The notes: a model not told the origin generated them from the sequence alone. A DNA stretch of 32,000 nucleotides from Planctomycetota bacterium (GCA_016188675.1 JACPHJ010000152.1:39372-71371); one strand, 5' to 3'; numbered from the stretch's first letter, positions 10,737-26,054 are shown. Numbers and translations are program-made.

Positions 10737-10750
10737 GTTGTTACATGTTT

Positions 10751-10780: not shown

Positions 10781-11227
10781 TCTCATAGCCAACATTGTCT
10801 TTCATATATCATTTATCGCTTCGGCTCATTCAAAGCATCAAGTACCAACGCTCAATTGTTAATATTTTAAACAAAAAAAGATCAATATCGATAGTCTTCA
10901 CTGTATTATTCATGCTGCTTATGCGTTATTAAGTTCACAATGGTTATTAATAATAAACAAATTATTTGCAGTATCATGGCATATATTTTGATAACTGTAC
11001 TGTAAGGATGTTTATTGTAATAGAACCATTGCTTGTCCAAATTAAATTGTAAAAGGAAGGAATGTATGAGTTTTATCTTACTGTTCAGCGCTTTGATTTC
11101 TTTGTTTTTAATAGTGGTGTTATAAATAAAAAAAAGAAATATTCCTGGTTGTTCTCGATAGTTATTGAAACTTAATGAGATTTGGAGGACTATTGAATTG
11201 GAAATATCAAAAGTTGTATATAAATTA

Positions 11228-12355
11228 ATGGAAGACGAAATGATGAGATTATTATTATCTGACGTTACAGATCTCACATACATTTATGATACGAATGGAA
11301 ATATTTTGTTTGTAAATAAGATATTTGAAAAATTTACCGTGCAAAGGCCTGAGGAATTTTACGGGAAACCGTTTATATCTCTTTTCAACGAAGAAGATCA
11401 AAAGAAAGTAACGGATGCTTATGCAAAGACATTGAACGGAGAGAGTACTCAATATGAACTTTGTTTTAAAAATACTGGAGTGTTATGTGAATACAAAAAT
11501 TTTCCGTTGAGAAATGAGAAGGGACAGATAATTGGAATTACTGGTATAGCTCGGGACATTACTGCCCGCAAACAATCTGAAGAAGGGTTGCGGGTACTTA
11601 ACAAATCTCTAGAAAAACGTGTGGTTGAACATACGGCTAAGTTAGTGGAGGTGAACGAAGAACTAATGGAAGAAATTAACAATCGCATGCGACAGGAAGA
11701 GGAGTTTAAACAAAGTATTAAGAAGTTGCAAAAATCATTGAGTGGAATCGTTCAAACTTTAGCATTGTCTATTGAGTCAAAAGACTCTTACGCGATAGGG
11801 CACCAGAAACGGGTAGCCAGGCTTGCTCGCTGTATAGCCGAGGAGATGGGTCTATCAAAGGATAGGATCGAAGGCGTCAGTATAGCTGCTATTCTTCACG
11901 ACATTGGCAATATTTCTGTGCCCACTGAGCTTCTAAATAAATCAGAGCGGCTTTCTGAGGATGAAGTTAATATAATCAAGACTCATCCACGTGTTGGTTA
12001 TGATATATTAAACGAAATGGAATTCCCGCATCCTGTTGCTCAAATCGTACTTCAACATCATGAAAGGGTCGATGGGTCTGGGTATCCTTTGGGCTTATCA
12101 GGAAAGGATATTCTCCTGGAAGCAAAAATTCTGGGCGTGGCCGACGTTATTGACGCGATGTTGTCTCCTCATCCATATAGGCCCGCACTTGGTTTGGATA
12201 AGGCATTAGATGAAGTTTCACGAAACAGAGGCATCCTTTATGATTTTAATGTAGTGTATGCCTGCCTGGTTGTTTTTAATGAAAAAGGATTTAAATATAA
12301 TGATTGGTCACGTACTAATTTAAGAATATTCGAGGACGTTCTACTGAGTGTTTAA
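11228..12355 (+). CDS. PAS-domain HD-GYP c-di-GMP phosphodiesterase
   Basis: HD (AILHDIGNISVP) and HHERVDGSGYP motifs. N-terminal PAS ending DITARK. The ORF is open from a TTG at 11165. The ATG at 11228 is the first ATG, so the start is uncertain. Confidence 0.85.
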   Translation: MEDEMMRLLLSDVTDLTYIYDTNGNILFVNKIFEKFTVQRPEEFYGKPFISLFNEEDQKKVTDAYAKTLNGESTQYELCFKNTGVLCEYKNFPLRNEKGQIIGITGIARDITARKQSEEGLRVLNKSLEKRVVEHTAKLVEVNEELMEEINNRMRQEEEFKQSIKKLQKSLSGIVQTLALSIESKDSYAIGHQKRVARLARCIAEEMGLSKDRIEGVSIAAILHDIGNISVPTELLNKSERLSEDEVNIIKTHPRVGYDILNEMEFPHPVAQIVLQHHERVDGSGYPLGLSGKDILLEAKILGVADVIDAMLSPHPYRPALGLDKALDEVSRNRGILYDFNVVYACLVVFNEKGFKYNDWSRTNLRIFEDVLLSV

Positions 12356-12363
12356 ATTAACTG

Positions 12364-12687
12364 ATGAATTGTAAAATGTCGGTAATAATTGTCGGGGGTG
12401 ATCATCTTGGGTGTATTCCAAAGGAACTTGACAGAATTGGTATCTCGAAAATTCAGCACTTAACCGGCAGGAGCGGACAAAAGATTCGCGGAAGAATGCC
12501 TGATAAGGCGGATTTTATTATTCTCCTTTACGATTTTGTAAATCATAATCTGGCGTACAAAATAAAAAAATTTGCAAGTAACAGAGGAATACCCATAATC
12601 TATGCAAAGAGGTCCTGGCCTTCTATATATCTTGGTATACAGGAACATCATCAGCAATTTAAAAAAGCAGGGTTAAATTTTTTATAA
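12364..12687 (+). CDS. DUF2325-like small protein
   Basis: Pattern VIIVGGD...H.TGR......(D)FIILLYDFVNHNL..KIK..A....IPIIYAKRS matches my recollection of DUF2325. Starts 9 nt after the HD-GYP stop. An alternative ATG lies at 12376. Confidence 0.55.
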   Translation: MNCKMSVIIVGGDHLGCIPKELDRIGISKIQHLTGRSGQKIRGRMPDKADFIILLYDFVNHNLAYKIKKFASNRGIPIIYAKRSWPSIYLGIQEHHQQFKKAGLNFL

Positions 12688-12703
12688 TTGAGAAAGGCAG
12701 ATT

Positions 12704-12952
12704 ATGATCGGAAACACATTCCTGGCATGTCCAAACTGCGGTGAAATTAAAAAATTCAGAATATTTACGAGTAACTTCCAAATTGTTGAACAATCTCCTG
12801 AAGTGGGGATCCGCACATATGAAAGCGGGATCCTGCCTAGTTTACGGGAAAACGATAACTACATCGAGTGCCAGTCATGTTTTAAAAAATCAGAGTATGA
12901 TGTTGCAGCAGATACCGGTAAAAAATTCATTCAGGATAACAAAAAATTATAA
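12704..12952 (+). CDS. Small zinc-ribbon protein (CPNC ... CQSC), function unknown
   Basis: Two CxxC pairs 44 residues apart. GAGAAAGG lies upstream of the ATG. The overlapping +72-aa alternative frame has no such features. Confidence 0.5.
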   Translation: MIGNTFLACPNCGEIKKFRIFTSNFQIVEQSPEVGIRTYESGILPSLRENDNYIECQSCFKKSEYDVAADTGKKFIQDNKKL

Positions 12953-12994
12953 AAGATGAGATTGCAACTCTGAGCTGGGTGTTTCATCTCTTCC

Positions 12995-13015
12995 GGAGGT
13001 GGGACACCCTCCTCC
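12995..13015 (+). terminator. GC-rich stem-loop GGAGGTGGG-aca-CCCTCCTCC (8/9 bp) after the zinc-ribbon gene
   Basis: Read directly. No U-tract, so terminator function is uncertain. Confidence 0.3.
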
Positions 13016-13184
13016 CCCATATAATAGAAATGCCTTTGTAACCTCGAAAATCTCCAATTACTTATCCTTCCTCTGTGCAATTTAACTTTTGCGGTAGTCT
13101 TGTTGTTATATATAGTGTCTGAATAAAAACTCATATTTTGCCAGTTTAAATCGTTTATTCGCCTTATGCTATTGTAAATTGTCA

Positions 13185-13213
13185 TTGACATTATTTTTGC
13201 AAATTTGTAGAAT
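13185..13213 (+). promoter_or_regulatory. Near-consensus sigma70-type promoter TTGACA-17 nt-TAGAAT upstream of acpS
   Basis: -35 at 13185-13190, 17-nt spacer, -10 at 13208-13213. Lies 72 nt upstream of the acpS ATG. Confidence 0.5.
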
Positions 13214-13285
13214 GCCAACTATCGTTGTGACAGATACTTGCATTATAAGTATTTAATATGGTCATGAAAGCGAAACAAAATAGTT

Positions 13286-13672
13286 ATGTACGTTGGAATC
13301 GATATTATAGAAATAAAACGTATTGAGAGATTGTTTTCTGTCAATGAGGGTTTCCTGCGAAAAATTTACACTGAAAAAGAGGTTGCTTACTGTAACCCCA
13401 AAAAGAACAAATACCAGCATTTTGCAGCTCGTTTCGCCACAAAAGAGGCCATGTTCAAGGCATTAGGGACTGGTTGGGTTGGGAAAATGAAATGGACGGA
13501 TATCGAACTGTTAAACGACGAAATGGGCAGGCCATATGTTAACCTTTATGGAAGTGTGAAAGAATTGGCAGACAAGAAACAGATTGACGATATCGCCGTA
13601 TCATTATCACACTGTCAGGATTACGCAATTGCACAGGTACTATTGGTACCAAAAAAAGAGGAACGTTCATGA
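13286..13672 (+). CDS. acpS: Holo-[acyl-carrier-protein] synthase (AcpS-type 4'-phosphopantetheinyl transferase)
   Basis: GIDIIEIKRI, FAARFATKEAMFKALG, WTDIEL..D..GRP and SLSHC.DYAIAQVLL; 128 aa. Confidence 0.9.
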   Translation: MYVGIDIIEIKRIERLFSVNEGFLRKIYTEKEVAYCNPKKNKYQHFAARFATKEAMFKALGTGWVGKMKWTDIELLNDEMGRPYVNLYGSVKELADKKQIDDIAVSLSHCQDYAIAQVLLVPKKEERS

Positions 13673-15147
13673 AAAAGCTTGTACTAATTAATCCGCATCC
13701 GATTGGAAATGTTGGTGAAGAAAATGTCTCTGTATTAAATCAAATGCCCGTGAATCTTGGGTATTTAAAGGTATTAACACCAAAGAATTGGCATGTTGAT
13801 ATCATAGACGAAACACAGGAACTTGCGATTGACGATACCGGAAATATTACTTTTGGTGAAGCTGACCTGGTTGGCATTACATCGGTAAGTTATCAGGCAC
13901 ATCGTGCATATCAAATAGCTACTGTCTGCAAAAAACGGGGTATACCCGTGATTATGGGCGGCATTCATGCCACCAGTTATCCGGAAGAGGCGGCAAACTA
14001 TGTGGATTGCGTTGTGACTAGAGAAGCCGTGACTACATGGGAAAAAATTATTAGCGATTTTGAAAAGGGATGTCTCCAAAAAAGATACGAAGGTGTTCTG
14101 ACACCCATGGAGTTGTATCAGGGACTGAGGCCTGATAGAAAATATTTAAAGGATAAATACAAATACCGCTACTCGGGTATCATAACAACTGCGGGTTGTC
14201 CTTTCAGTTGCGAGTTCTGCTCCGTGCCTCAGTTCCAGGGCAGGAAATATCGTGAAAGACCCGTTGAAGACGTCCTCGATGAATTCGAATCCATTAAAGG
14301 TCAATATCGCGGTTTAATATTAACGGACGAAAACTTTTATGGGCACAGCAAAAAGTCCAATGAACGTGTTCTTGAACTTTTCAAGGGAATGGTGGAGAGA
14401 GGCATTTATCAGAATTGGTTCGGGTTTACCTCACTCAACATTTACAAAGACGATGAAACCCTTGAATACATGAAAAAGAGCGGGTGCGTCGGGGTATTGA
14501 TTGGAATAGAATCCATCAATGAAGAAGCCCTGAAAACGATGAATAAGAATGTAAACCTGCGCATCTCGATTGAGAATTATTTCGAAGCCATTGCCAATAT
14601 CCGTAAACACGGTCTTGCAGTCTGGGGGACAATGGTATTTGGTAACGATGCCGATACGCCTGAAACCTTTAAACAGGTTGCTGATTTTGTTATGGATTCC
14701 CATGTTGATATCATGACCTGCGGTATTTTGTGTCCATTCATCAATACACCGCTGTATCACAGATTGAAAGGCGATGGCAGGCTGTTCAGGACAAACTTCC
14801 CCGAGGATTGGAAGTATTACACGTCTCATCACCTTACCTATATTCTCAAAAATATGTCTCTCCAGGAACTTATTGACGGCTTCCAATACTTGTATGACAA
14901 GATTTACGCCACAGAAGTATTGCGTCAAAGGTTCCAGAACGCAAAAGAGGTACTCAAAGATAACATGAATGCCGCCATGTTTGCATTCAGGGTAAATCTC
15001 GACTGGCAGAGTGTCTATCAACACCTGATACAAAATTTAAAAGAATTGCAAACATCGGGGTTTTACGAAGAGACATTGAAAAGCTATAATCTTGCGGGAA
15101 AACAGGGTAGAAAGCCGGAATTGACTGCCGTTGAGGCTCAGTCATAA
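13669..15147 (+). CDS. B12-binding-domain radical SAM enzyme (class B type)
   Basis: N-terminal cobalamin-binding-like Rossmann segment (DLVGITSVSYQAHRAY..A..CKKRGIPVIMGGIHAT). CPFSCEFC (CxxxCxxC, Cys codons at 14197, 14209 and 14218). The start overlaps the acpS stop (ATGA). Confidence 0.88.
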   Translation: MKKLVLINPHPIGNVGEENVSVLNQMPVNLGYLKVLTPKNWHVDIIDETQELAIDDTGNITFGEADLVGITSVSYQAHRAYQIATVCKKRGIPVIMGGIHATSYPEEAANYVDCVVTREAVTTWEKIISDFEKGCLQKRYEGVLTPMELYQGLRPDRKYLKDKYKYRYSGIITTAGCPFSCEFCSVPQFQGRKYRERPVEDVLDEFESIKGQYRGLILTDENFYGHSKKSNERVLELFKGMVERGIYQNWFGFTSLNIYKDDETLEYMKKSGCVGVLIGIESINEEALKTMNKNVNLRISIENYFEAIANIRKHGLAVWGTMVFGNDADTPETFKQVADFVMDSHVDIMTCGILCPFINTPLYHRLKGDGRLFRTNFPEDWKYYTSHHLTYILKNMSLQELIDGFQYLYDKIYATEVLRQRFQNAKEVLKDNMNAAMFAFRVNLDWQSVYQHLIQNLKELQTSGFYEETLKSYNLAGKQGRKPELTAVEAQS

Positions 15148-15160
15148 GATACCGCAATTT

Positions 15161-15190
15161 GAGATTTATGATTTGGAATCATAAGTTCTC
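15161..15190 (+). terminator. Hairpin TTATGATT-tgg-AATCATAA (perfect 8 bp, extendable), 14 nt after the radical SAM stop; related to the gatttacgatt/aatcgtaaatc repeat family
   Basis: Read directly. Confidence 0.4.
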
Positions 15191-15235
15191 TGTGGTTTAT
15201 TCGATTTCAGCAGTTGAATTTTATTGGTTATTATA

Positions 15236-15272
15236 GGTCAACTTATTCGCATTGAAAGGTGAATAGTTGACC
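15236..15272 (+). promoter_or_regulatory. Hairpin GGTCAACT(T)ATTC / GAATAGTTGACC (12 bp, one bulge, 12-nt loop), 29 nt upstream of the KS start
   Basis: Read directly. Function unknown (RNA structure or operator). Confidence 0.35.
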
Positions 15273-15300
15273 TCTATTATTTTACAGAATAAAAATAGAT

Positions 15301-16512
15301 ATGCCAAAGGTCGTAATTACAGGATTGGGATTAGTCACGCCCGTTGGAACAGGGATCAAAAAAAGCTGGGAATCGTTCATCCTGGGCAGAAACGGAGCGA
15401 ATGAGATGAAGTCATTCGATACATCCAAATACAAGGTGCACCGTTCCTGTGAGGTAAAAGATTTTCACTTAGACGTTGAGCTTGAAAACCAGATAAAGGA
15501 AAATACCATCCACAAATATGTCTACTACGCAGCCAGAGAGGCGTTACAGGAAAGCGGTTTATTGGATGATAAAAATTTCAACAGAGAACGGTTTGGTATT
15601 GCCATTGGTACATTAGCAGCCGAATTAACGCCTTTTGAGAGACTTCTCAGGTTAGACACTTCAAAAAAAGACAACGGTTTCGACAAGATTGTTGCAGCAG
15701 TTTATCCCCCCAATTCTATAACAAATATCCTGTCTGAAAATTTTGATTTCGAAGGCCCAACCATGATTTCATTGAATGCCTGCTCATCCGGCAATCATGC
15801 AATTGCCTGGGCCTGCGACCTTCTTTTAGAAAACAAGGTTGATGTGGTAATGGTCGGAGGGGGCGACATGATTCCTCAAACGGAATTCACCCATTTCCAT
15901 AACCTCAAGGCATTAGCGCCCGAACGCTGTCAGCCATTCGATAAAAACCGTCAGGGTCTCATGATTGGAGAAGGGGCTGGGATACTTATTATGGAACGCT
16001 ACGAATTTGCTAAAAAACGAGGCGCAGCGATTATCGCTGAAATGGCTGGTTACGGGCTGAGCTGTGATGGATTTCACATGACGGCGCCACATCCAGAAGG
16101 CGACGGCGCTGTAAAATGCATGAGCGATGCGCTAAAAATGGCAAATCTTTCTCAGGCAGACATCGGTTACATTAATGCACACGGCACTGGGACACCCCAT
16201 AACGACAAAACAGAAACAATTGCCATAAAACGTGTATTCACGGAATACGCCCATAAAATTCCCTGCAGTTCCACGAAATCTATGATTGGTCACCTTATGG
16301 GCGCGGCCAGTGCTGTAGAATCGGTCATTTGTTGTCTGGTACTACGGCATGGAATCGTACCGCCAACGATTAATTACGAAACGCCTGATCCGGAGTGTGA
16401 CCTCGATTATATACCCAATACGGCACGCGAATTAAATGTAAAGCATGTCTTGAATAATTCATTTGCCTTCGGCGGAAATAACGCCACGACAATTTTTAGT
16501 AAGATGGGTTAA
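15301..16512 (+). CDS. fabF: Beta-ketoacyl-ACP synthase II-type ketosynthase, catalytically complete
   Basis: NACSSGNHAI (Cys161, codon 15781-15783), FHMTAPHP, NAHGTGTPHND, KSMIGHLMGAAS and NSFAFGGNNAT. Confidence 0.9.
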   Translation: MPKVVITGLGLVTPVGTGIKKSWESFILGRNGANEMKSFDTSKYKVHRSCEVKDFHLDVELENQIKENTIHKYVYYAAREALQESGLLDDKNFNRERFGIAIGTLAAELTPFERLLRLDTSKKDNGFDKIVAAVYPPNSITNILSENFDFEGPTMISLNACSSGNHAIAWACDLLLENKVDVVMVGGGDMIPQTEFTHFHNLKALAPERCQPFDKNRQGLMIGEGAGILIMERYEFAKKRGAAIIAEMAGYGLSCDGFHMTAPHPEGDGAVKCMSDALKMANLSQADIGYINAHGTGTPHNDKTETIAIKRVFTEYAHKIPCSSTKSMIGHLMGAASAVESVICCLVLRHGIVPPTINYETPDPECDLDYIPNTARELNVKHVLNNSFAFGGNNATTIFSKMG

Positions 16513-16566
16513 GCAAAGCGAATCATCATTTAAGTCTATCCGTGTTGATCCGTAGTAAAAAACATT

Positions 16567-17802
16567 ATGAAAAAAAGAGTCGTTATTACAGGCTTAGGTG
16601 TTGTATCTCCTCTAGGATGTGGCAAAGAAGCCTTCTGGAATAACCTTATAGAGGGAAAGTCAGGTATTGCACCAATGACCTCTCTTGACCTCTCTCCCTA
16701 TAAATGCAAGCTCGGAGGCGAGGTTAGAGACCTGCATCCTGAGATACACCTGGGAAGCAAGGGACTAAAATACTTAAACAAAGGCACACGTTTTTTAGGC
16801 TCTGCCTCTAAGATGGCCATTGACGATGCAAAGATACCGCAGGACGGTTCCTTATCGAATCGTATGGGTATTGTCATAGGCTCATCTCTCGGAAATTTTT
16901 CTGAAACGACAGATTACTTCTACGAAATAATCCGTAATAATCCATCCGAGTTGTCACCCATGCTCAGTTATGACGTTGCTTTAAATTCTTCCATTAACTA
17001 TGTCTCGGTCATCTTTAAAATAAAGGGACTCGCGCGCACCATTTCTGCGGGTTTTACGTCTAGTACAGACGCAATAGGTGATGCCTATAAAATGATTCAG
17101 AGAGATATGGCAAAGGTAATTGTGGCTGGCGGTGTCGAGCAGATTTCCATTGATTTATATCTCATATTCTATTTACGGGGCTTGCTGTCCGGCCTTGATA
17201 GTACAAAAGAGGCAAGCACACCATTTGATAAGGACAGAAATGGCTTTGTCATGGCTGAAGGCAGTTACGTAGTTATTCTCGAAGAGCTCCAGCATGCCAT
17301 TGACCGGGGAGCGCATATCTATGCAGAGATAAAGGGATTTGGAAATACCTTTGTAGGAGGCAAAAACCATCCGGCAGATGAAAGAATTCGTCGGGCCGAA
17401 AAGGCTATGCACGGCGCTTTAGAAGACGCGGAAGTTAAAAAAGAAGACGTTGATTTCATCAGTGCAAATGCGAACGGATGCAAGATACAGGATGCAGTCG
17501 AGGCAAAGGCAATCCAATCATTATTCGGCGCAGGCAGCAATCGTATTCCAGTATCTGCAATAAAATCAAACATCGGCGAATCGTACGGGTCCGCAGGCGC
17601 AGCACAACTCATTTCATCGCTCATGTCAATAAACACAGGTCAAATACCGCACATCATCAATCACAACAACAAAGATCCAGAAATCAGTCTGAATCTTATC
17701 ATAGAAAAACCCCTCAAAAAAGAAATCCAAAACGCAATAATAAATAACATGGATTATGATGGAAATAATTCATGTCTGGTAATAAGCAAGTGTAGCAAAT
17801 AA
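16567..17802 (+). CDS. Ketosynthase-fold paralog lacking the Cys-His-His triad (chain-length-factor-like / KS-beta-like)
   Basis: Thiolase/KS fold motifs are retained (VVITGLGVVSPLG, DKDRNGFVMAEGS). The active-site positions read SAGFTSSTDAI (no Cys), GNTFVGGKNHP (no HxTAP), SANANGC (His to Asn) and KSNIGESYG (His to Glu). Confidence 0.85.
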   Translation: MKKRVVITGLGVVSPLGCGKEAFWNNLIEGKSGIAPMTSLDLSPYKCKLGGEVRDLHPEIHLGSKGLKYLNKGTRFLGSASKMAIDDAKIPQDGSLSNRMGIVIGSSLGNFSETTDYFYEIIRNNPSELSPMLSYDVALNSSINYVSVIFKIKGLARTISAGFTSSTDAIGDAYKMIQRDMAKVIVAGGVEQISIDLYLIFYLRGLLSGLDSTKEASTPFDKDRNGFVMAEGSYVVILEELQHAIDRGAHIYAEIKGFGNTFVGGKNHPADERIRRAEKAMHGALEDAEVKKEDVDFISANANGCKIQDAVEAKAIQSLFGAGSNRIPVSAIKSNIGESYGSAGAAQLISSLMSINTGQIPHIINHNNKDPEISLNLIIEKPLKKEIQNAIINNMDYDGNNSCLVISKCSK

Positions 17803-17871
17803 ATAATGTAATGCTTATTGATTGTGTTGTTTTATTATATTAACCGTCTTAAATAAGTTGACATTGAATGC

Positions 17872-17937
17872 TTGTCATTCCGAGCGGAGCGAGGAATCTT
17901 AAGATTTCTCAGTCGCTCTGCTCCTTCGAAATGACAA
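17872..17937. repeat. REP-like imperfect inverted repeat (TTGTCATTCCGAGCGGAGCGAGGAATC ... CGAAATGACAA)
   Basis: Perfect 8-bp outer arms TTGTCATT/AATGACAA with partially complementary GAGCGGAGCGA / TCGCTCTGCTC inside. Lies 70 nt after the KS-like stop. Confidence 0.6.
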
Positions 17938-18206
17938 CTTTCTTTTGTCGTTCGTTATAGATAAGATGAAATAGATAAAGGATTCGATGCCAGTGTAACT
18001 ACGACAGAAAATGCAAAATAACAAAATCAAACAATTATCATGATCCGTATAATATTCAAATTTTATCGTTACATAGAAATTATCAAATGCTTTTCAACAC
18101 GATTCTGATAGTTCCACATGAAATTGAAATATCATAAATAAGTCATTGGTAATTCATAGAATAAAGATAAATGTTATACGGACAAAAAATTTCAAAACCA
18201 TAAAAA

Positions 18207-18971
18207 ATGTTTGACACTCACTCAGTACACAAGAAGCCAGCAAATTCACGTCAAAAAATGTGGCGTTATATGACATACGAAAAACTCATGCAGACAATTG
18301 AAGAGGAGGTGATGTACTTTTCAAATATCACCCAAATGGGAGATAATTGGGAAGGGCTGCTGACGAAAAAGACGAGAGAAATGTTTTGGAGGTCTGAGCT
18401 TGCGAAATACAATGGAAATATGGAAGCAGCAGAAGGTTCAGTCAGACGGTACGAAGAATTTAGGAAGGATTTTTACATAAACTGTTGGCACATGAATGAT
18501 CATGAGTCTTACCTGATGTGGAAGGTTTACGCGAACAAAGGTTGTGCCATTCAAACTAACTATGAACGGCTCTCGGCTTCTTTCGAGGCTACGCCAGCTA
18601 AAATTGAAGGTTGTGTTGTCGAATATATCGATTATGAAAGAGACTATTTCAGTATAGGAAACACGTATACTCAAGTTGGTTACAAGGACATTCCGTACCG
18701 AGATGAGCGTGAGTACAGACTTCTATTTTGGAAGTCCGGTCTAGAAAACCAAAAGCTCAATGCAGGAGACAAAGGCATAAAAATACAAGTAGACCTAAGA
18801 ATGCTTATTGATAATATTTACCTCAACCCCAATCATCTACCCGATTACAGTGAATTGGAGAGTTTGATAAAGAAAAAGAGGTTAGACTGTGATATCAAAA
18901 ACACGAAAATCATGGAAAATAATGTACGCCCGTCCAAAGTGGTAAATTATCACATCTTAAAAGTTAAATAA
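18207..18971 (+). CDS. DUF2971-like protein, function unknown
   Basis: N-terminal MWRYMTYEKLMQTIEEEVMYFSNITQMGDNWEG matches the DUF2971 pattern (W/Y-R-Y-M..ekf..ll....l.F......D..EG). Isolated in AT-rich DNA. An alternative start lies at 18258. Confidence 0.6.
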   Translation: MFDTHSVHKKPANSRQKMWRYMTYEKLMQTIEEEVMYFSNITQMGDNWEGLLTKKTREMFWRSELAKYNGNMEAAEGSVRRYEEFRKDFYINCWHMNDHESYLMWKVYANKGCAIQTNYERLSASFEATPAKIEGCVVEYIDYERDYFSIGNTYTQVGYKDIPYRDEREYRLLFWKSGLENQKLNAGDKGIKIQVDLRMLIDNIYLNPNHLPDYSELESLIKKKRLDCDIKNTKIMENNVRPSKVVNYHILKVK

Positions 18972-19008
18972 TCGCATAATTCCCGTGATTTAACATTTGA
19001 GATGTGAC

Positions 19009-19043
19009 CCTCCACGCTTCCCTCCACACTTCCTCCACGCTTC
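19009..19043 (+). repeat. Tandem repeat CCTCCACGCTTC / CCTCCACACTTC / CTCCACGCTTC (3 units of about 12 nt)
   Basis: Read directly, 38 nt after the DUF2971 stop. Confidence 0.7.
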
Positions 19044-19133
19044 TTCAGTGGGTAGCCATTCCGGCGGAAAGAGTAAAAGTACTTTCATACAGGGTTCGTT
19101 AGTACTTTAATGTACAAGAATTTTCCAATCGAC

Positions 19134-19163
19134 TGTAGTGGCAAGGCGCGCCTTGCCACTACA
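19134..19163. repeat. Perfect 30-bp palindrome TGTAGTGGCAAGGCG|CGCCTTGCCACTACA
   Basis: Each half is the exact reverse complement of the other, with no loop. Confidence 0.8.
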
Positions 19164-19581
19164 ATGTTGTTAGTTGCCGAAGACCTTAATTATAAAGGGA
19201 AATTTCTTTGAATTAGTAACGAACGCTTACGCAACAAAAAAAAGAATACCACCATGCCGGATAATAAAGCAAGAAATTTTCCAGGTGGTAGTTTATATTT
19301 ATGACAAGACTTTTAAGATAGAATTTAACGTGGCAATTTACCACGCTGCCTCAAGAGATAAATACATATTCAGCCATTATCAGCTATTATGAAAGTGGGA
19401 AAAATATTCCTACTGCATATATAATCGCGACTTTTTACCTAGAAAATCACGGTTGTGGCACGCTAATCATACTTTTGGCATAATATTTGAGCTGTTTTTC
19501 TTTACTCGCATTTTGACCACACCTGAGATTTTGCTTTCATTTAACGTTTGTTCAGCAGTCTTAAAATCAAAGGAGAGAAAT

Positions 19582-20973
19582 ATGGCGCAGTCCGATGATA
19601 CAGACAAATACCTTTCAGTCAAGGTCTCTGACGACCTTATGAAGGTCTATTTAACGGTAAAACCCTTTGCAAAAGGGGGCGTTGATATCAACGTAAATGA
19701 CGTAATTCAAACCCTGCAGTCGAAAAATATTTCCTATGGAATAAAGGAAGAGGTTATCATGGCTACCCTGGATAAAGCCAGATTAAAAGACAGTGCCGTG
19801 GAGGATGTACTTATAGCAGAAGGAGACCAAACGATTTTTGGTGAAGACGGCAGGCTTGAATTTTTGTTTGACGTAGACAAGAAAATCAAGCCTCAAGAGG
19901 GCGCTCATGGTAAGATTGATTTTCACGAAGTGAGTATTATTGAGAATGTTGAAAAGGATCAACCCCTGGTAAAATTAATAGATCCAACTACCGGGAAGCC
20001 TGGGAAAAACGTATTTGGGAAAATGCTTAGCCCTGTACATGGGAAACCATGTGTACTCCCAATCGGTGAAAATACCAGGGTATCTGAGAAGGACTCGAAA
20101 TTGTTGGTATCCTGTGTCAGTGGAAATGTACGATATGCCGGTGGTGTTGTCTCTGTAAAGTCTTGCTGTACGGTCGAAAAGGACGTTGATTTTGGCGTGG
20201 GTAATATCACAAGCAAAGGAACTGTCGTTGTCAAAGGAAACGTAAGAAGCGGGTTTATTGTAGATGCGGTAGGAGATGTGGAGATTTGGGGTACGGTAGA
20301 AGATTCAATAATAAAGTCAAAGGGCAACGTCCTGATAAAAGGCGGTTTTATTGGTTCTGGTAAGGGAAAACTTGAGGCGGAGGGAGATGTAACCATTGGC
20401 TTTGCCAGGAATCAGACAATTGTGGCAACTAATGTAATAATATTACGAGAGGCAGTTGATTGTACAATCTATGCTAAAAATACCGTGAAGGTGACCGGGG
20501 ATAAGATATCCATCGAAGGTGGAATAACAACCTCAGGCGCAGTAATTGAAGTCGAATCATTGGGAAGTAAAAATGAGGTTCACACAGACATAGAAGTCGG
20601 CACTAACTACGCTGCACAGCAAAGTCAAATGAATACAAGGAGAGAGGTGAGTGGCTTAAAAGCTATTCTGAAAACGGTTGAAAAAGAACTCAACACATTG
20701 CATGCAATGAAGAAAGTGAAGGGGGAACTTCCGGCACAGTACATAAACACATTTGATCACCTCCTTTCCCGCAGGGAAGAGATAGTGAAAAAATTAAAAG
20801 ACCTTGCGAGCGAAGAAATAGTAGCTGTTAACAACGAAGCCAAAGTAGTGGTCAATAAGGTCGTTCATCCGGGAGTAGAGATTACGATTGGGGAATCAAC
20901 AATGACCATTCTTGAGGAATATAAAAAGACAACGTTCTATTTATCAGGAGATGAGATAAAAATCAAAAAATGA
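19582..20973 (+). CDS. FapA-family (DUF342) protein
   Basis: DKYLSVKVSDDLMKVYLTV, ISYGIKEE, GKPGKNVFGK, beta-helix-like repeats (G.V...G.V), a coiled coil, and C-terminal VVNKVVHPGVEITIGE. The ATG at 19582 has an AGGAGA SD. The ORF-track start at 19453 adds an implausible leader. Confidence 0.75.
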   Translation: MAQSDDTDKYLSVKVSDDLMKVYLTVKPFAKGGVDINVNDVIQTLQSKNISYGIKEEVIMATLDKARLKDSAVEDVLIAEGDQTIFGEDGRLEFLFDVDKKIKPQEGAHGKIDFHEVSIIENVEKDQPLVKLIDPTTGKPGKNVFGKMLSPVHGKPCVLPIGENTRVSEKDSKLLVSCVSGNVRYAGGVVSVKSCCTVEKDVDFGVGNITSKGTVVVKGNVRSGFIVDAVGDVEIWGTVEDSIIKSKGNVLIKGGFIGSGKGKLEAEGDVTIGFARNQTIVATNVIILREAVDCTIYAKNTVKVTGDKISIEGGITTSGAVIEVESLGSKNEVHTDIEVGTNYAAQQSQMNTRREVSGLKAILKTVEKELNTLHAMKKVKGELPAQYINTFDHLLSRREEIVKKLKDLASEEIVAVNNEAKVVVNKVVHPGVEITIGESTMTILEEYKKTTFYLSGDEIKIKK

Positions 20974-21419: not shown

Positions 21420-23444
21420 ATGAGCAAACTATTTGACAAAATACATATCGGCCAAATGACATTGAAAAACAGGATAATCATGTCCGCCATGGACCTGGGT
21501 TTTACTTCAGATGGCGCCATTAACGACCAGATTATCAACTTTTATATTGAGCGGGCAAAAGGGGGGGTAGGTCTTATTGTTGTTGGGGGTTGTTATCCCG
21601 AAATGAATGGCAAGGTCTGGAAGAGCATCATTGGGCTGGACAAGGACGAACTTATCCCCGGATTAAAAAGATTGACCGATGCAATTCGCCAGTATGACGT
21701 TCGTGTGGCCGCACAACTCCTTCATGCCGGTCGAAGCGCTTCATCCTTTTTCACAAAAATGCAGCCTGTTGCGCCGTCTGCCGTGGCATATAGAAGCATC
21801 AAAGAAGAGCCTCATGCCCTGACAATCCCTGAGATCAAAACGGTTATAAATAATTATGCAGGCGCCGCACTCAGGGCAAAAAAGGCCGGTTTTGATGCCG
21901 TGGAACTTCACGGTGGAATGGGTTATCTCATCAATCAGTTTCTTTCAAAGGCTACCAATAAACGCAACGACGAATATGGTGGAAGCCTTGAAAACAGAGT
22001 TCGTTTTGCGAAGGAAATGATTCTCGCGATAAAAGAAACTGTTGGAAAGGATTATCCCATCATCTTTCGAATGTCGGGAGACGACCTTGTAGAAGAAGGA
22101 CTAAAGATTGACGAAAGCGTTGAAATTGCCAAAATCCTTGAACAGGCAGGCGCCGACGCCTTTAACGTCTCTCCAGGCTGGCACGAAAGCAAGACCCCCA
22201 TTATGTTGATGTCTATTCCCAGGATGGCTTATGCATATCTTTCCGCGAAAGTTAAATCTCAGGTTACGGTTCCCGTGATTGCCTCGGTGCGGATAAACGA
22301 CCTCGAATTGGCAGAAGAAATATTGGATAATGAACAGGCGGATTTCGTGTCAATCGGTAGACCACTGATTGTTGATCCGGAACTGCCAAATAAATATAAA
22401 AATGGACAGTTTAATGATATCAGAACGTGTATTGCCTGTAATCAGGGGTGCTTTGATTCTTTGTTAAACTTTAAACACGTTTCCTGCACATATAATGCGA
22501 TGGTGGGACACGAAGGTGAATATAAAATAACCAAAACGGATAAACCAAAAAAGGTTGCAGTGGTGGGCGGTGGACCCGGTGGTATGGAGGCAGCCCGTGT
22601 CCTGGCATTGAGGGGACACCGTGTGACGCTGTACGAGAAAAATAATCAACTGGGCGGTCAATTGCGATATGCCTATATTCCTCCAGGACGAGAAGAAATA
22701 CAGAATATCATCACATATCTGGAAAGACAAATTTCAAAGCTCAAAGTAAACATAAAAATGGGAAGAGAGGCAGATTTGCAGACATTAGAGGAAGAACACC
22801 CTGACGCAGTAATCGTAGCTACAGGCGGACGCCCAATAATGCTCAATCTACCCGGAATAAAAGGAGAAAACGTTTATATTGCCGGCAGTGTGTTGGAAGG
22901 GAAAGTAACAACAGGGAAGGACGTCGTCATCATTGGCGGCGGAACGGTTGGATGTGAGGTGGCTTTGTATGTGGCCAAACAGGGAGCAATGAGGCCGGAT
23001 GTCGCCTGTTTTCTCCTTAAACATAAGGTGCTTGACGCCAAAGATATTGTTGAATTTACTTCGAAGGGAAACAGAAATATTACGCTCCTGGAAATGAAAA
23101 AAAAGGTGGGTGGTGGATTTGGTTTCTCCACACGATGGGTTATCCTCAATGAGCTGAAAGATGCAGGGATAAAAGAAATAACAGAGGTAAAGGTAAAAGA
23201 AATTATAAATAACCACGATGAAAATGGTCATAAAAATAGGGGAGTTGTGTACGAAAAGGACGGTCAGGAACATTTCATCAAGGCAGATACCGTAGTCATT
23301 GCCGTGGGATACGGGTCTAATAACGAACTCCAGAAACAGGTGGAAGGAAAATTTCCAGAAACTTACTTTATCGGAGACTGTGTCAAGGTGCGCACCGCAT
23401 TAGAAGCTATTCACGAAGGTTTTAAAGCAGCATTAAAAATATAG
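21420..23444 (+). CDS. 2,4-dienoyl-CoA reductase-like (FadH-type) OYE-family FMN/4Fe-4S oxidoreductase with a C-terminal FAD/NAD(P)-binding domain
   Basis: OYE N-terminus (IGQMTLKNRIIMSAM; QLLHAGR; ELHGGMGYLINQFLS..TN.R.DEYGGS). Cys cluster CIACNQGCFD...C. Dinucleotide fold VAVVGGGPGGMEAA. Confidence 0.88.
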   Translation: MSKLFDKIHIGQMTLKNRIIMSAMDLGFTSDGAINDQIINFYIERAKGGVGLIVVGGCYPEMNGKVWKSIIGLDKDELIPGLKRLTDAIRQYDVRVAAQLLHAGRSASSFFTKMQPVAPSAVAYRSIKEEPHALTIPEIKTVINNYAGAALRAKKAGFDAVELHGGMGYLINQFLSKATNKRNDEYGGSLENRVRFAKEMILAIKETVGKDYPIIFRMSGDDLVEEGLKIDESVEIAKILEQAGADAFNVSPGWHESKTPIMLMSIPRMAYAYLSAKVKSQVTVPVIASVRINDLELAEEILDNEQADFVSIGRPLIVDPELPNKYKNGQFNDIRTCIACNQGCFDSLLNFKHVSCTYNAMVGHEGEYKITKTDKPKKVAVVGGGPGGMEAARVLALRGHRVTLYEKNNQLGGQLRYAYIPPGREEIQNIITYLERQISKLKVNIKMGREADLQTLEEEHPDAVIVATGGRPIMLNLPGIKGENVYIAGSVLEGKVTTGKDVVIIGGGTVGCEVALYVAKQGAMRPDVACFLLKHKVLDAKDIVEFTSKGNRNITLLEMKKKVGGGFGFSTRWVILNELKDAGIKEITEVKVKEIINNHDENGHKNRGVVYEKDGQEHFIKADTVVIAVGYGSNNELQKQVEGKFPETYFIGDCVKVRTALEAIHEGFKAALKI

Positions 23445-23486
23445 AAATATGGCAAACATAAGCAAGTATTCTGAGGTTTTCTTGCA

Positions 23487-24293
23487 ATGAAAGATATTCG
23501 CATGAATCGTGGTGATAACTCCGGTTATAACAACATCGAGTTTGAAGAAATTTCTGGAGATAATGGCAAGGCTGTTGGCATTATCTACATGAAGAAACCA
23601 CCGCGAAACTCCATTGGATCATGGCTTCTCGACGCCATCTACAATAAAATGGATCAATACGAGGGCGATGATAAAATCGGAGCTATCGTTATTGCAAGCA
23701 AACTCAGAGGTGTCTTCAGCGACGGCGCAGACCGTGACGAACTCTTTGGCTCATGGATATCAGGACTTGTTGCAGAAAAGAACTATGAACGATTCCACCG
23801 CGCCCATGAGATGTTCGTGGAAATTGAAAATTGCAAAAAGCCCGTTGTTGCCGCTATTAACGGCGTTACTATCGGCGCAGGCCTGGAACTCGCCATGTTG
23901 TGTGACCTGCGTATTGCATCAGAACTTTCCTTCTTTAGCCTTCCGGAAGCAAAACCGGAACTCAGCATTATTCCCGGCCTGGGTGGTACTCAGCGTTTGC
24001 CTCGTTATATTGGCGCTGCACGCGCCAAGGAAATGCTGTTCCTGGGCAAGATGATCCGTGCCGAGACGGCATTGGAGTGGGGTCTCATTAACCAGATTGC
24101 GCCGCATAAAGAAGTGTTAGACCAAACCATAGAGATTGCAAAAATTCTCTTAGAACGTGATGCACGTGCGTTAAAGGAAATGAAAAAGTGTATTAACTTT
24201 GCCGTAGAGAATGATATCCTGAAGGGCATCGAATATGAGGTAGGTCTCTTTGCTGAGATGATGCGATTGAAGCTTTTACATAAAAGTAAATAA
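23487..24293 (+). CDS. Enoyl-CoA hydratase/isomerase (crotonase superfamily)
   Basis: AAINGVTIGAGLELAMLCDLRIA and LPEAKPELSIIPGLGGTQRLPR. Both catalytic Glu positions are present. Confidence 0.88.
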   Translation: MKDIRMNRGDNSGYNNIEFEEISGDNGKAVGIIYMKKPPRNSIGSWLLDAIYNKMDQYEGDDKIGAIVIASKLRGVFSDGADRDELFGSWISGLVAEKNYERFHRAHEMFVEIENCKKPVVAAINGVTIGAGLELAMLCDLRIASELSFFSLPEAKPELSIIPGLGGTQRLPRYIGAARAKEMLFLGKMIRAETALEWGLINQIAPHKEVLDQTIEIAKILLERDARALKEMKKCINFAVENDILKGIEYEVGLFAEMMRLKLLHKSK

Positions 24294-24746: not shown

Positions 24747-25490
24747 GTGGAATTTAAGGATAAGGTGGCAATCGTCACAGGTGGCACAAGAGGGATAGGA
24801 CGGGCAATCGCACTGGAACTGGCAAAGAACGGCTGCAACATCGCTTTTAATTATAGTAAAAGCGCTGATGCAGCAACTGCATTGGTAAAGGAAATCGAAA
24901 CCCTGGGCGTGAAAGCCTTTTCTTTACAGGTTGATGCCGCCAGTTTAGAGGGTGCAAAAAATATGATAAAAGAGGTCAAGGAAAAGTTTGGGAAAATTGA
25001 CTTTCTGGTAAACAATGCAGGAATTACCCGAGATAAACTCCTGGCCTTGATGGCAGAGAGTGACTGGGATGACGTCATCAATACCAATCTCAAGAGCGTG
25101 TATAATTTTTCAAAGGCGGTTATTACCCAGATGATCAAGCAAAAGGCAGGCAGTATCCTTAATATAACCTCTGTAAGCGGAATAATCGGGATGGCAGGCC
25201 AGGTTAACTATTCTTCCTCAAAGGCAGGCATGATCGGTTTTACGAAGGCGCTTGCAAAGGAGGTTGGAAAGGTAAATGTCACCGTAAATGCCATTGCCTG
25301 CGGTTTTATTGAAACCGATATGACAGCTGTGCTGCCCCAGGAATACAAAGATAAGGTAATCGAAATGATCCCCGTGAGAAGATTCGGCAAGGCCGAAGAG
25401 GTTGCAAAAACAGCGGTATTTTTGTTGTCTGACAATGCGAGATATATTACCGGCCATGTTATTAGTGTAGACGGCGGTTTGGCGATATAA
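24747..25490 (+). CDS. fabG: 3-oxoacyl-[ACP] reductase (SDR family)
   Basis: VTGGTRGIGRAIA, NNAGITRD, YSSSKAG and VNAIACGFIETDM. GTG start preceded by AAGGAGG. Confidence 0.9.
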   Translation: MEFKDKVAIVTGGTRGIGRAIALELAKNGCNIAFNYSKSADAATALVKEIETLGVKAFSLQVDAASLEGAKNMIKEVKEKFGKIDFLVNNAGITRDKLLALMAESDWDDVINTNLKSVYNFSKAVITQMIKQKAGSILNITSVSGIIGMAGQVNYSSSKAGMIGFTKALAKEVGKVNVTVNAIACGFIETDMTAVLPQEYKDKVIEMIPVRRFGKAEEVAKTAVFLLSDNARYITGHVISVDGGLAI

Positions 25491-25742: not shown

Positions 25743-26054
25743 ATGTTATTTCTTTTAAAGGTTGAGGTAAAACAGATGCCCCAGATGCCTGTAAAGGACT
25801 TTCTGGGATACGTAATACGGGAGTGGGAGTATTTTTCACGATTTCAGCGGCGCGGCAAGATATTGGCAGGCGGAAAGCTGTCCGGCAGGCGCGGAGCTGC
25901 CGCTATTATTGACGCTGAGTCCAACGAAGAAATGGAAGAGATCGTCTCTAAATTGCCCCTTTTCCCATTTTTTACCGATATCGAAATTACACCCCTCGTG
26001 CCGATGGAAAAGGCACTGCTGGATACCAAGAGAATTCATTCTCTCATGAAGTAA
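25743..26054 (+). CDS. Muconolactone delta-isomerase-fold small protein (CatC-like family)
   Basis: MLFLLKVEVK...(Q)RRGK...AAAIIDAESNEEMEEIVSKLPLFPFFTDIEITPL parallels CatC (MLFHVKM...REG...SVFDV.S.E.LH..L..LPLFPYMDIEV.L); 103 aa. Confidence 0.65.
   Translation: MLFLLKVEVKQMPQMPVKDFLGYVIREWEYFSRFQRRGKILAGGKLSGRRGAAAIIDAESNEEMEEIVSKLPLFPFFTDIEITPLVPMEKALLDTKRIHSLMK

Follow-up and report, generated by a model that had tools for sequence, protein, structure and literature searches.

A Brocadiaceae ortholog of kuste2802-2805 as probable half of an ACP-dependent pathway for an unusual lipid

Introduction

Which product could be made by a set of genes in which a holo-ACP synthase, a radical SAM enzyme with a cobalamin-binding domain, an intact ketosynthase and an inactive ketosynthase follow each other on one strand? 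The question was raised by the window, the 32,000-nucleotide stretch of DNA from a Planctomycetota bacterium (GCA_016188675.1 JACPHJ010000152.1:39372-71371) analysed here. It bears on the ladderane lipids, the synthesis of which is unsolved more than 20 years after their discovery, with no enzyme tied to it, and anammox bacteria are not genetically manipulable.

The initial annotation had pointed to a ladderane candidate locus of Rattray et al. (2009), and this was correct. The unit is the Brocadiaceae ortholog of kuste2802-2805 of K. stuttgartiensis, with the same four genes, the same order and the same substitutions in the dead ketosynthase (Phe/Asn/Asn/Cys/Lys/Glu/Gln); since that locus was flagged by Rattray et al., it is already known, and finding it again adds little. 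Kuste2802 was given there as acpS and Kuste2803 as a SAM radical enzyme with a B12 domain, which was singled out as a candidate cyclisation enzyme (PMC2649909). Kuste2804 was listed as the FabF of this cluster by Javidpour et al. (2016, PMC4790861), and Kuste2805 is a non-canonical ketosynthase with Phe163, Asn298, Asn300, Cys302, Lys328, Glu333 and Gln342 (Rattray Table 2, PMC2649909). At these positions the second ketosynthase of the window (KS2) has F/N/N/C/K/E/Q, as Kuste2805, and the Phe392 position is Tyr. The K. hertensis ortholog is 87% identical in the first ketosynthase (KS1) and 82% in the radical SAM enzyme, but the host genus differs, and in the window acpS overlaps the radical SAM gene. 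When kuste2802-2805 were expressed in E. coli, most of the protein was insoluble and no new fatty acid appeared (Javidpour et al. 2016, PMC4790861). The earlier remark that biochemical reconstitution is lacking still holds.

Organization and conservation of the locus

Four open reading frames were verified on the + strand, acpS, the radical SAM gene, KS1 and KS2. A sigma-70-type promoter, TTGACA-17-TAGAAT (13185..13213, + strand), was the top promoter-like site in a scan of the region, with 11 of 12 positions. The motif TTGAC[AT]-17-TA[ACG]AAT was kept upstream of acpS at about 100 nt (83-139) in 20 of 23 related Brocadiaceae loci, where it is constant while the flanking sequence diverges, and the near-consensus promoter followed by four same-strand genes was thus borne out as first described. 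Loci of Kuenenia and Jettenia are among these 20.

The first gene, acpS (13286..13672, + strand), is the ortholog of Kuste2802 and was identified as a holo-ACP synthase by TIGR00516 (95.7 bits, cutoff 59.8) and PF01648 (69.3 bits, cutoff 25). Its overlap with the radical SAM gene is the four bases ATGA, and the ORF coordinates agree with the initial annotation in this point. The annotation had also treated acpS as a dedicated part of the module, which is unsupported because K. stuttgartiensis has a single acpS in its genome (Rattray Table 1, PMC2649909). Between 13185 and 17802 no ACP, FabD, FabH, FabZ or FabI genes were found, confirming that the unit itself stands without acpP, fabD, fabH, fabZ and fabI, and no homologs of ACP, FabZ, FabH or PDH were found in the entire window.

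The gene order was conserved in about 100 Brocadiia loci. Followed step by step through the evaluable non-redundant loci, acpS precedes the radical SAM gene in 90 of 95, KS1 comes after the radical SAM gene in 93 of 93, and KS2 follows KS1 in 78 of 81. These loci span Brocadia, Jettenia, Kuenenia, Loosdrechtia, Wunengus, Scalindua, Anammoxibacter and Subterrananammoxibius, and also include deeper-branching Brocadiia of about 50% GC. Within Brocadiia the unit is present in every anammox family sampled, with strongly conserved sequence. A comparison of synteny and phyletic distribution had been proposed in the initial annotation, and its anammox side shows the four-gene order kept across the families sampled.

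The nearest relatives of the window proteins all belong to Brocadiaceae MAGs, and the host is a groundwater Brocadiaceae with 95% nucleotide identity to MAG nzgw514 and close to Ca. Wunengus. Exact-sequence look-ups for the radical SAM protein of the window and for P0121 gave no record. No hydrazine synthase gene was found within the window. A search of the leader and the remaining sequence for a riboswitch or other RNA yielded neither a tRNA nor any Rfam match at gathering score.

The ketosynthase pair

KS1 (15301..16512, + strand), the ortholog of Kuste2804, is an intact ketosynthase with Cys163, His303, His340, Lys335 and Phe400 (E. coli FabF numbering). It reached 413.8 bits on TIGR03150, the canonical FabF equivalog, which is below the cutoff of 493.75, and passed the broader FabF subfamily model NF005589 (408.8 bits, cutoff 387). 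KS2 (16567..17802, + strand), the ortholog of Kuste2805, has Phe in place of the catalytic Cys, and Asn and Glu in place of the two His; it fails both models (330.7 bits on TIGR03150). Its pattern Phe163/Asn303/Asn305/Lys335/Glu340/Gln349 was kept in all nine anammox lineages aligned, which span the families sampled. The residue alignment therefore agrees with the first description of an active ketosynthase beside a catalytically dead paralog. The dead ketosynthases all fall in one clade with 100% bootstrap in neighbour-joining trees with a single canonical FabF outgroup. In many lineages the KS1 stop and the KS2 start overlap or lie at most 4 nt apart, which suggests that the two genes may be translationally coupled.

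The best solved relative of KS1 is chain B of 9S5H (410 bits, against about 305 bits for canonical FabFs), and that of KS2 is chain C (295 bits), so that the top solved match of each subunit is the matching chain of one structure. From length, catalytic residues and annotation, we infer that these chains are the B. fulgida amxFabF2/amxFabFmut heterodimer (bioRxiv 10.64898/2026.05.19.726425). AmxFabF2 and amxFabFmut co-purify, their crystal structure was solved, and malonyl-ACP was decarboxylated only when both were co-expressed (bioRxiv 10.64898/2026.05.19.726425). By analogy, KS1 and KS2 are predicted to be a second ketosynthase/chain-length-factor (KS/CLF) pair, KS1 being the paralog of amxFabF2 and KS2, the chain-length-factor-like member, that of amxFabFmut.

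A comparable layout is found in type II polyketide synthases, in which the genes of an active and an inactive ketosynthase (KS-alpha and KS-beta, actinorhodin 1TQY) are likewise adjacent, often with coupled translation, and the inactive partner, the chain length factor, is proposed to determine how large the acyl pocket is. However, the actinorhodin proteins are less similar to the window ketosynthases (E ~1e-45) than FabF is (E ~1e-75), and unlike in type II polyketide synthases, polyketide cyclase or aromatase genes are absent here. An active-site Gln is typical of polyketide chain length factors, whereas KS2 has Phe at the active-site Cys position in all orthologs.

The radical SAM enzyme

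The radical SAM gene (13669..15147, + strand; PF02310, PF04055, DUF4070) is the ortholog of Kuste2803. Its product has an N-terminal B12-binding domain (PF02310, 36.2 bits, cutoff 32.1) and a radical SAM domain (PF04055, 76.8 bits) with CPFSCEFC at residue 177 as the CxxxCxxC motif. An AlphaFold2 model (pLDDT 91) gave a class B fold, which matches AprD4 most closely, and also TsrM, TokK and OxsB, with MgmA and CysS likewise near, at only 13-20% identity to the solved structures. To our knowledge AprD4, the closest fold, does not bind cobalamin, and for this reason the B12 domain is by itself no proof of cobalamin use. The N-terminal B12 domain, the CxxxCxxC barrel and a helical C-terminal domain are common to the window enzyme, the characterised class B enzymes (BchE, HpnJ, HpnR, TokK, CysS) and TIGR04072. 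Unlike the characterised families, the window enzyme reaches no NCBIfam family cutoff and stays far below each of them, with 85 bits against 360 for TIGR04072 'rSAM_ladder_B12', 86 against 578 for HpnJ, 84 against 481 for BchE, 71 against 650 for HpnR and 97 against 600 for PhpK. Outside its own superclade, the nearest radical SAM proteins in a library of 50% cluster representatives are 38-42% identical and belong to no named family; the nearest relatives at 37-42% reach no named subfamily cutoff either.

Two clades, 2803-type and 3608-type, were resolved in the neighbour-joining radical SAM tree with 100% support each, and the window enzyme is the sister paralog of the enzyme of Cluster I (kuste3603-3608). 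Among named matches the radical SAM protein was 88% identical to Ca. Wujingus, 76% to Scalindua and 54% to Brocadia, against 89% to Brocadia for KS2, and horizontal replacement of the gene was suspected. This was rejected as an artefact, for the 54% Brocadia match is a paralog that groups beside the Cluster I enzyme, and the true Brocadia ortholog, in the same neighbourhood, is 92% identical. Wujingus itself belongs to Brocadiaceae. A solo radical SAM paralog adjoins Mla genes in Brocadiia JP1 (L086).

The enzyme might instead be a class B C-methyltransferase, and the module would then yield fatty acids with methyl branches, of which anammox bacteria have 10-methylhexadecanoic acid as an example, and not cyclobutane rings. 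Most characterised cobalamin (class B) radical SAM enzymes are methylases, MgmA, TsrM, TokK and CysS are among the nearest folds, the methylases PhpK and HpnR are among the best partial NCBIfam matches, and relatives occur in non-anammox bacteria without known ladderane production. However, no methylase family cutoff was reached, the non-methylases HpnJ, BchE and AprD4 score about equally, and the NCBIfam and PDB entries for AprD4 name a radical SAM diol dehydratase rather than a methylase. The two to three paralogous radical SAM genes, each beside a KS/CLF pair, are more readily explained by action while the chain is built than by a single late methylation, and anammox studies examined class I SAM methyltransferases interacting with ACPs (PMC9821293). 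Methyl branching is thus considered unlikely.

Downstream partners

Four further genes, which begin 3.6 kb past KS2 and are likewise on the + strand, could supply the processing steps of an elongation cycle. The first encodes a FadH-like flavoprotein (21420..23444, + strand) with OYE and pyridine-nucleotide-disulfide oxidoreductase domains (PF00724, PF07992), the best solved relative of which, over the full length, is E. coli 2,4-dienoyl-CoA reductase (1PS9, E 1e-114); it comes after KS2 in 42 of 69 evaluable loci. A crotonase-family enoyl-thioester hydratase/isomerase (23487..24293, + strand; PF00378) was found in 25 of 33 evaluable anammox loci and shares 42-44% identity with the crotonase that adjoins the KS pair of the non-anammox clusters L085, L091 and L146. 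The FabG-type 3-oxoacyl-ACP reductase (24747..25490, + strand; TIGR01830 318.8 bits, cutoff 297.75) is present in 21 of 29 evaluable loci, with 52% identity to the reductase of L085 and 65% to that of L146. Last is a small muconolactone-isomerase-like (MIase-like) protein (25743..26054, + strand; PF02426), the gene of which occurs in 11 of 19 evaluable loci; the protein is 49% identical to that of L085 and 61% to that of L146. The MIase-like genes of L085 and L146 each adjoin a KS pair.

In most non-Brocadia anammox lineages these four genes lie directly 3' of KS2, and the module cannot be called stand-alone, as it first was, since they are conserved operon partners. In Brocadia and Kuenenia they no longer adjoin KS2, and in the Kuenenia loci examined they were not found within about 3 kb downstream of it. 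Two inserted genes separate KS2 from the FadH-like to MIase-like block (21420-26054) in the window, and a terminator-like hairpin lies at 19134-19163; co-transcription of all eight genes is unlikely here because the halves are kept apart in this way. Taken jointly with the ladderane pathway set out below, it seems fairly probable that acpS, the radical SAM gene, KS1 and KS2 make up the first half of an ancestral operon of eight genes, which runs from acpS through the MIase-like gene.

Cluster I and relatives outside anammox bacteria

Cluster I has the same core as the window unit, namely an active KS, a dead KS and a B12 radical SAM enzyme. Identity to the Cluster I counterparts is 45% for KS1 (Kuste3605), 38% for KS2 (Kuste3606) and 51% for the radical SAM enzyme (Kuste3608), and PDB 9S5H and 9S5I are probably the solved structures of the Cluster I heterodimer. 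A preference for non-canonical substrates or for the special amxACP was shown for the Cluster I pair. KS2 and the dead subunit of Cluster I share Asn at His303, Lys335, Glu at His340 and Gln at Glu349, but the catalytic Cys is replaced by Val or Thr in amxFabFmut and by Phe in KS2. Unlike Cluster I, the window unit has no ACP, FabZ or phytoene-desaturase-like gene, whereas the acpS, FabG, crotonase, FadH-like and MIase-like genes belong to the window unit and not to Cluster I.

Homologous modules were found on rare contigs of 50-70% GC, which are labelled Myxococcales or Blastocatellia or are unassigned. Contig L091 has ACP, FabZ, KS, CLF, PDH, three radical SAM genes, KS, CLF and crotonase contiguously on one strand, so that Cluster I and a window-type module are joined in a single cluster. 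A similar arrangement, plus ACPS, FabH and a second ACP, was found in the Myxococcales-labelled MAG locus L085. Compared to place L091 taxonomically, its TonB-receptor-like gene has only 28% identity to the Blastocatellia one. The contig L045, labelled Thermodesulfobacteriota, was rejected as a non-anammox case; with 77% identity to the window protein, a GC content of 40.6% and all of its genes Scalindua-like, it was probably mis-binned.

In the initial annotation, wide occurrence of the unit in bacteria with ordinary lipids was held to speak against a ladderane role. This objection applies in part, as homologous modules of a KS, a dead KS and a B12 radical SAM enzyme exist in a few non-anammox bacteria. 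That Cluster I and a window-type locus are fused in these bacteria argues for the two belonging to one pathway. A further step, that each is half of a single ancient pathway comprising some 15 genes and still contiguous in rare non-anammox bacteria, is put forward tentatively and is rather doubtful at present.

The module and Cluster I might also make another specialised acyl product, such as a polyene, a polyunsaturated or an otherwise cyclised chain, with a coincidental or indirect link to ladderanes. The contiguous superclusters of the 50-70% GC bacteria hold ApeI/ApeP-like dehydratases, a phytoene-desaturase-like enzyme and a MacB-type exporter, a FadH-like dienoyl reductase with a crotonase would suit conjugated enoyl intermediates, and the third cluster of Rattray et al. 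is common to Desulfotalea, which has no ladderanes (PMC2649909). Against this, the unit is universal among the anammox families sampled within Brocadiia and strongly conserved, polyunsaturated or cyclopropyl fatty acids were undetected in anammox bacteria (PMC10139942), and the anammox proteins form their own clades (99-100% support), separate from the non-anammox ones. Such a product therefore appears improbable.

A housekeeping role, in which the unit would be a variant system for type II fatty acid synthesis kept beside an essential acpS without any special product, agrees with acpS being the only holo-ACP synthase gene of K. stuttgartiensis and with KS1 and the reductase passing NF005589 and the FabG model, but is very improbable, as KS1 misses the FabF equivalog cutoff and KS2 fails both models, a canonical fabH/fabD/acpP/fabF cluster exists elsewhere in K. 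stuttgartiensis (kustd1386-1389, PMC2649909), and ordinary synthesis can do without a B12 radical SAM enzyme and without a dead ketosynthase kept by purifying selection.

Proposed pathway

Judged from sequence, the locus would be one half of an ACP-dependent pathway that makes an unusual lipid, probably ladderane. What was observed in its favour are the orthology, the synteny, the active-site states, the paralogy with a solved heterodimer and the fusion with Cluster I elsewhere. AcpS, the sole holo-ACP synthase in Kuenenia, would phosphopantetheinylate carrier proteins, including amxACP encoded in Cluster I. KS1 and KS2 would act as a ketosynthase/chain-length-factor heterodimer like their paralogs amxFabF2/amxFabFmut, in which KS1 would carry out decarboxylative Claisen condensation with malonyl-ACP, and KS2 would shape the acyl tunnel, its conserved Phe filling the former active site. 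The beta-keto product could be processed by FabG, by the crotonase with the MIase-like isomerase and by the FadH-like reductase, which together with the KS pair would give a complete non-canonical elongation cycle. The cobalamin radical SAM enzyme may then abstract hydrogen from an unactivated carbon of the ACP-bound chain and form a C-C bond, by ring closure or methyl addition. In all this the module would work with its paralogous partner, Cluster I.

Ladderane is most likely the product in anammox bacteria. We know of no report of ladderanes from the 50-70% GC non-anammox organisms that bear homologous modules. According to the authors of PMC10139942 and bioRxiv 10.64898/2026.05.19.726425, no experiment ties any gene of the window unit or of Cluster I to ladderanes. 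As a whole, the explanation that a kuste2802-2805 ortholog, in an eight-gene operon, works with Cluster I toward ladderane is regarded as the reading with a reasonable balance of probability on its side.

Significance

The predicted second KS/chain-length-factor pair would be approachable with the methods used for Cluster I. A reductase, a hydratase/isomerase and an enoyl-type reductase come with the locus itself, giving a concrete list of genes for reconstitution. The fused clusters outside anammox bacteria qualify the published claim that Cluster I is exclusive to ladderane producers (PMC10139942). If the single ancient pathway is true, the fused clusters would define the minimal set of genes and be easier starting points for reconstitution, and ladderane-type or related radical-cyclised fatty acids would not be confined to anammox bacteria.

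The four-gene unit and its host

All four genes proposed in the initial annotation were present in the window exactly as stated there, on the + strand. The first gene, acpS (13286-13672), encoded an AcpS-type phosphopantetheinyl transferase (PF01648; TIGR00516, 95.7 bits against a cutoff of 59.8), and its end was seen to overlap by ATGA, as had been claimed, with a radical SAM gene (13669-15147), which carried a B12-binding domain, a radical SAM domain and DUF4070, with CPFSCEFC at residue 177. Two ketosynthase genes followed, KS1 (15301-16512) and KS2 (16567-17802). KS1 kept Cys163, His303, His340, Lys335 and Phe400 (E. coli FabF numbering), and in KS2 the triad positions were Phe, Asn and Glu, with Asn305, Cys307, Gln349 and a retained Lys335 in the alignment, which bears out the pairing of an active with a dead ketosynthase.

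The near-consensus promoter described in front of the unit, TTGACA-17-TAGAAT (13185-13213, + strand), was the best site of the region in the scan. Of 23 related Brocadiaceae loci, 20 had the motif about 100 nt 5' of acpS with invariant spacing, those of Jettenia and Kuenenia among them, so this putative site has good comparative support as a real promoter. Terminator-like sites were not found on the + strand inside the four genes, nor were Rfam matches or tRNAs across the whole window.

A regulatory cassette was located 5' of acpS (4493-12952), made up of a PAS/GAF/HAMP histidine kinase of 1403 residues, a sigma-54-dependent response regulator (8850-10628), a PAS-HD protein (11165-12355), DUF2325 (12364-12687) and an 82-residue CxxC...CxxC protein (12704-12952). 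The genes of the last four were kept 5' of acpS in 13-16 Brocadia/Jettenia loci.

KS2 was 100% identical to a protein of a Planctomycetes MAG in NCBI and matched Brocadia proteins at about 89%; the radical SAM protein shared 99% identity with its counterpart in the groundwater MAG nzgw514 and 92% with that of Brocadia, and the neighbouring genes shared 94-98% with their counterparts in Ca. Wunengus sp. YC64 (Brocadiaceae). These identities point to a groundwater-type Brocadiaceae as the origin of the window.

The unit is almost certainly the ortholog of kuste2802-2805, in which Kuste2802 is acpS, Kuste2803 is a SAM radical enzyme with a B12 domain and Kuste2805 is a non-canonical 'FabB' with Phe163, Asn298, Asn300, Cys302, Lys328, Glu333 and Gln342 (Rattray et al. 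2009, PMC2649909), a residue pattern identical to that of KS2 in the window; kuste2804 is the FabF of the cluster (Javidpour et al. 2016, PMC4790861). The initial annotation had named the Rattray et al. locus correctly. Kuste2803 was listed as one of two genes with cyclisation potential (Rattray et al. 2009, PMC2649909), expression of kuste2802-2805 in E. coli gave mostly insoluble proteins and no new fatty acids (Javidpour et al. 2016, PMC4790861), and a 2022 review still gave Kuste2803 merely as a 'potential catalyst' (PMC9204698), so the unit is an already-known candidate locus of unproven function.

Conservation and the downstream operon

Species-representative genomes and metagenome contigs were scanned, followed by tblastn, and 106 non-redundant loci were kept whose radical SAM protein was at least 65% identical to that of the window. 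Gene order was conserved, with acpS just 5' of the radical SAM gene in 90/95 evaluable loci, KS1 after it in 93/93 and KS2 in 78/81. The loci spanned Brocadia, Jettenia, Kuenenia, Loosdrechtia, Wunengus, Scalindua, Anammoxibacter, Subterrananammoxibius and deeper-branching Brocadiia with a GC content near 50%. In all nine anammox lineages aligned, the KS2 residues read Phe/Asn/Asn/x/Lys/Glu/Gln without exception, which argues for purifying selection on the inactive protein. In many lineages the stop of KS1 overlapped the start of KS2 or lay no more than 4 nt from it, which is typical of partners produced in equal amounts.

The unit had been regarded as a stand-alone module, which is inaccurate, since four further genes of the window are its operon partners in other anammox lineages. 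They encode a FadH-like flavoprotein (21420-23444, + strand), whose top solved relative was E. coli 2,4-dienoyl-CoA reductase (1PS9, E 1e-114), a crotonase (23487-24293, + strand), a FabG above the TIGR01830 cutoff (24747-25490, + strand) and a muconolactone-isomerase-like (MIase-like) protein (25743-26054, + strand). The FadH-like gene lay directly 3' of KS2, with the other partners next, in Scalindua, Jettenia, Subterrananammoxibius, Anammoxibacter and the 50% GC lineages; among evaluable loci it followed KS2 in 42/69, and crotonase was present in 25/33, FabG in 21/29 and the MIase-like gene in 11/19. In Brocadia proper and Kuenenia all four had become separated from KS2. Besides the radical SAM enzyme, the ancestral operon would have supplied a condensing enzyme, a ketoreductase, a hydratase/isomerase and an enoyl-type reductase, a set that could form a complete, though non-canonical, elongation cycle.

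Between KS2 and the FadH-like gene lay a FapA-like gene (19453-20973; PF03961/PF20250), found in this position only in the window and nzgw514, and a stretch of about 1.4 kb (17802-19393) with a 254-residue ORF (18207-18971), for which no family match was found, and a terminator-like hairpin (19134-19163). This stretch was missing from the otherwise 95%-identical nzgw514, and nucleotide identity between the two fell to 88% over KS1-KS2 (15194-17801), which suggests recombination or an indel hotspot. Beyond the MIase-like gene, positions 26094-29327 held a 479-residue ORF that matched no family, a PBP-like fragment and a HAMP-GGDEF protein; at other loci none of them was seen next to the operon. 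Genes for glutamyl-tRNA reductase and for a cytochrome c assembly protein lay on the - strand (29471-31784).

The ketosynthase pair and Cluster I

In the first search, the top Kuenenia match to the radical SAM protein of the window (52%) was Kuste3608, the enzyme of Cluster I (kuste3603-3608), whose gene setting is ACP, FabZ, KS, KS, phytoene-desaturase-like gene (PDH) and radical SAM. Among solved structures, KS1 matched 9S5H chain B best (410 bits, canonical FabFs about 305 bits), and KS2 matched 9S5H chain C best (295 bits, runner-up 256). From sequence and annotation, we infer that these chains are the B. fulgida amxFabF2/amxFabFmut heterodimer, the active and dead ketosynthases of Cluster I. 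According to a 2026 preprint, whose text does not mention kuste2804/2805, the two proteins co-purify, malonyl-ACP is decarboxylated only if they are co-expressed, and the dead subunit amxFabFmut has a chain-length-factor-like role (10.64898/2026.05.19.726425). KS1 and KS2 are therefore likely to form a second heterodimer of a ketosynthase with a chain-length-factor-like subunit.

In neighbour-joining trees with bootstrap, all dead ketosynthases fell in a single clade (100%), and the radical SAM proteins formed a clade like Kuste2803 (2803-type, 100%) and a clade like Kuste3608 (3608-type, 100%), united in a superclade (96%). From these topologies, the three-part core of ketosynthase, dead ketosynthase and B12 radical SAM enzyme appears to have been duplicated as a set.

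The radical SAM enzyme and the possible products

No curated NCBIfam cutoff was reached by the radical SAM protein; TIGR04072 'rSAM_ladder_B12' gave 85 bits against a cutoff of 360, and the HpnJ, BchE, HpnR and PhpK models were similarly short. In a library of 50% cluster representatives, the nearest proteins beyond its own superclade were 38-42% identical, and no named family was found for them. A class B architecture was predicted by a confident structure model (pLDDT 91), whose nearest solved folds, 13-20% identical, were AprD4, MgmA, TsrM, TokK, CysS and OxsB. Ca. Brocadiia bacterium JP1 (L086, 10001-11425) had a third B12 radical SAM paralog that stood alone, with 55% identity to the protein of the window, adjoining MlaD/MlaE/ABC lipid-transport genes and away from any ketosynthase.

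The proposed interpretation is borne out in part: the unit probably acts on ACP-bound chains, and its ladderane role is still an inferred one. We somewhat favour a joint action of the operon and Cluster I on an unusual lipid, with ladderane as the most likely one. The family scores and the predicted structure would fit a cyclase and a methylase alike; a class B methylase that yields branched chains is considered unlikely, and another specialised acyl product is given the same low probability. The acpS of the unit is the general acpS of the genome, and housekeeping fatty acid synthesis as the role of the operon is very improbable.

Relatives outside anammox bacteria

Such clusters were rare outside the anammox bacteria, with seven contigs found against about 100 anammox loci, and in the KS and radical SAM trees every non-anammox protein was sister to the corresponding anammox clade. 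In a MAG labelled Myxococcales (GCA_037446155.1, 64.6% GC), a contig of 506 kb (L085) carried on one strand (3954-21449) ACP, ApeI-like dehydratase, KS, truncated dead KS, three B12 radical SAM genes, KS, dead KS, MIase-like, crotonase, SDR, ACP, FabH, ACPS, KS and MacB-type transporter; of its five KS-family genes, two were dead. The module was present in minimal form in a MAG labelled with an acidobacterial class (Blastocatellia, GCA_035652355.1) and in soil metagenome 3300005529 (L089/L090/L096; 5133-11467 in L089), where KS, dead KS (Phe in place of Cys), 2803-type radical SAM, DUF374 on the opposite strand and 3608-type radical SAM followed each other, and neither ACP nor AcpS was found nearby; the soil contig matched that of the MAG (L089/L090, 50% GC).

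A Logan contig (L091, SRR13254584, 55% GC), whose organism fell outside the anammox grouping in protein trees, carried on one strand (1670-14797) SCP2, ACP, FabZ-like, KS, dead KS, PDH, three B12 radical SAM genes, KS, dead KS and crotonase. Its full Cluster I set was 50% (ACP), 52% (FabZ), 65% (KS), 55% (dead KS), 50% (PDH) and 61% (radical SAM) identical to that of Kuenenia; directly after came another radical SAM gene, a 2803-type one (57%), a KS1-type (57%) and a KS2-type (45%) ketosynthase and the crotonase, which amounts to Cluster I fused with the kuste2803-2805 module. In JGI contig Ga0209172 (L146, 9995-16100, 52% GC), a 3608-type radical SAM gene preceded KS1-type, KS2-type, crotonase, SDR (65%) and MIase-like (61%) genes, so a given radical SAM type is not tied to one type of ketosynthase pair. 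Further examples were L147 (70% GC), with dead KS, PDH, two radical SAM genes, KS, dead KS and SDR in order, L093 and L150. A bin labelled Thermodesulfobacteriota (L045, 40.6% GC) also had acpS, radical SAM and KS1 genes, at Scalindua-level identity (77%); judging from this identity and GC content, it is most likely a mis-binned Scalindua contig.

'Ladderane-type' clusters in other phyla have already been called by genome-mining tools (PMC9902471), and the non-anammox clusters qualify the published claim that the candidate cluster is exclusive to ladderane producers (PMC10139942). They make crotonase, SDR and MIase-like genes partners beyond the anammox bacteria too, and they argue for Cluster I and the kuste2802-2805-type operon acting in one pathway.
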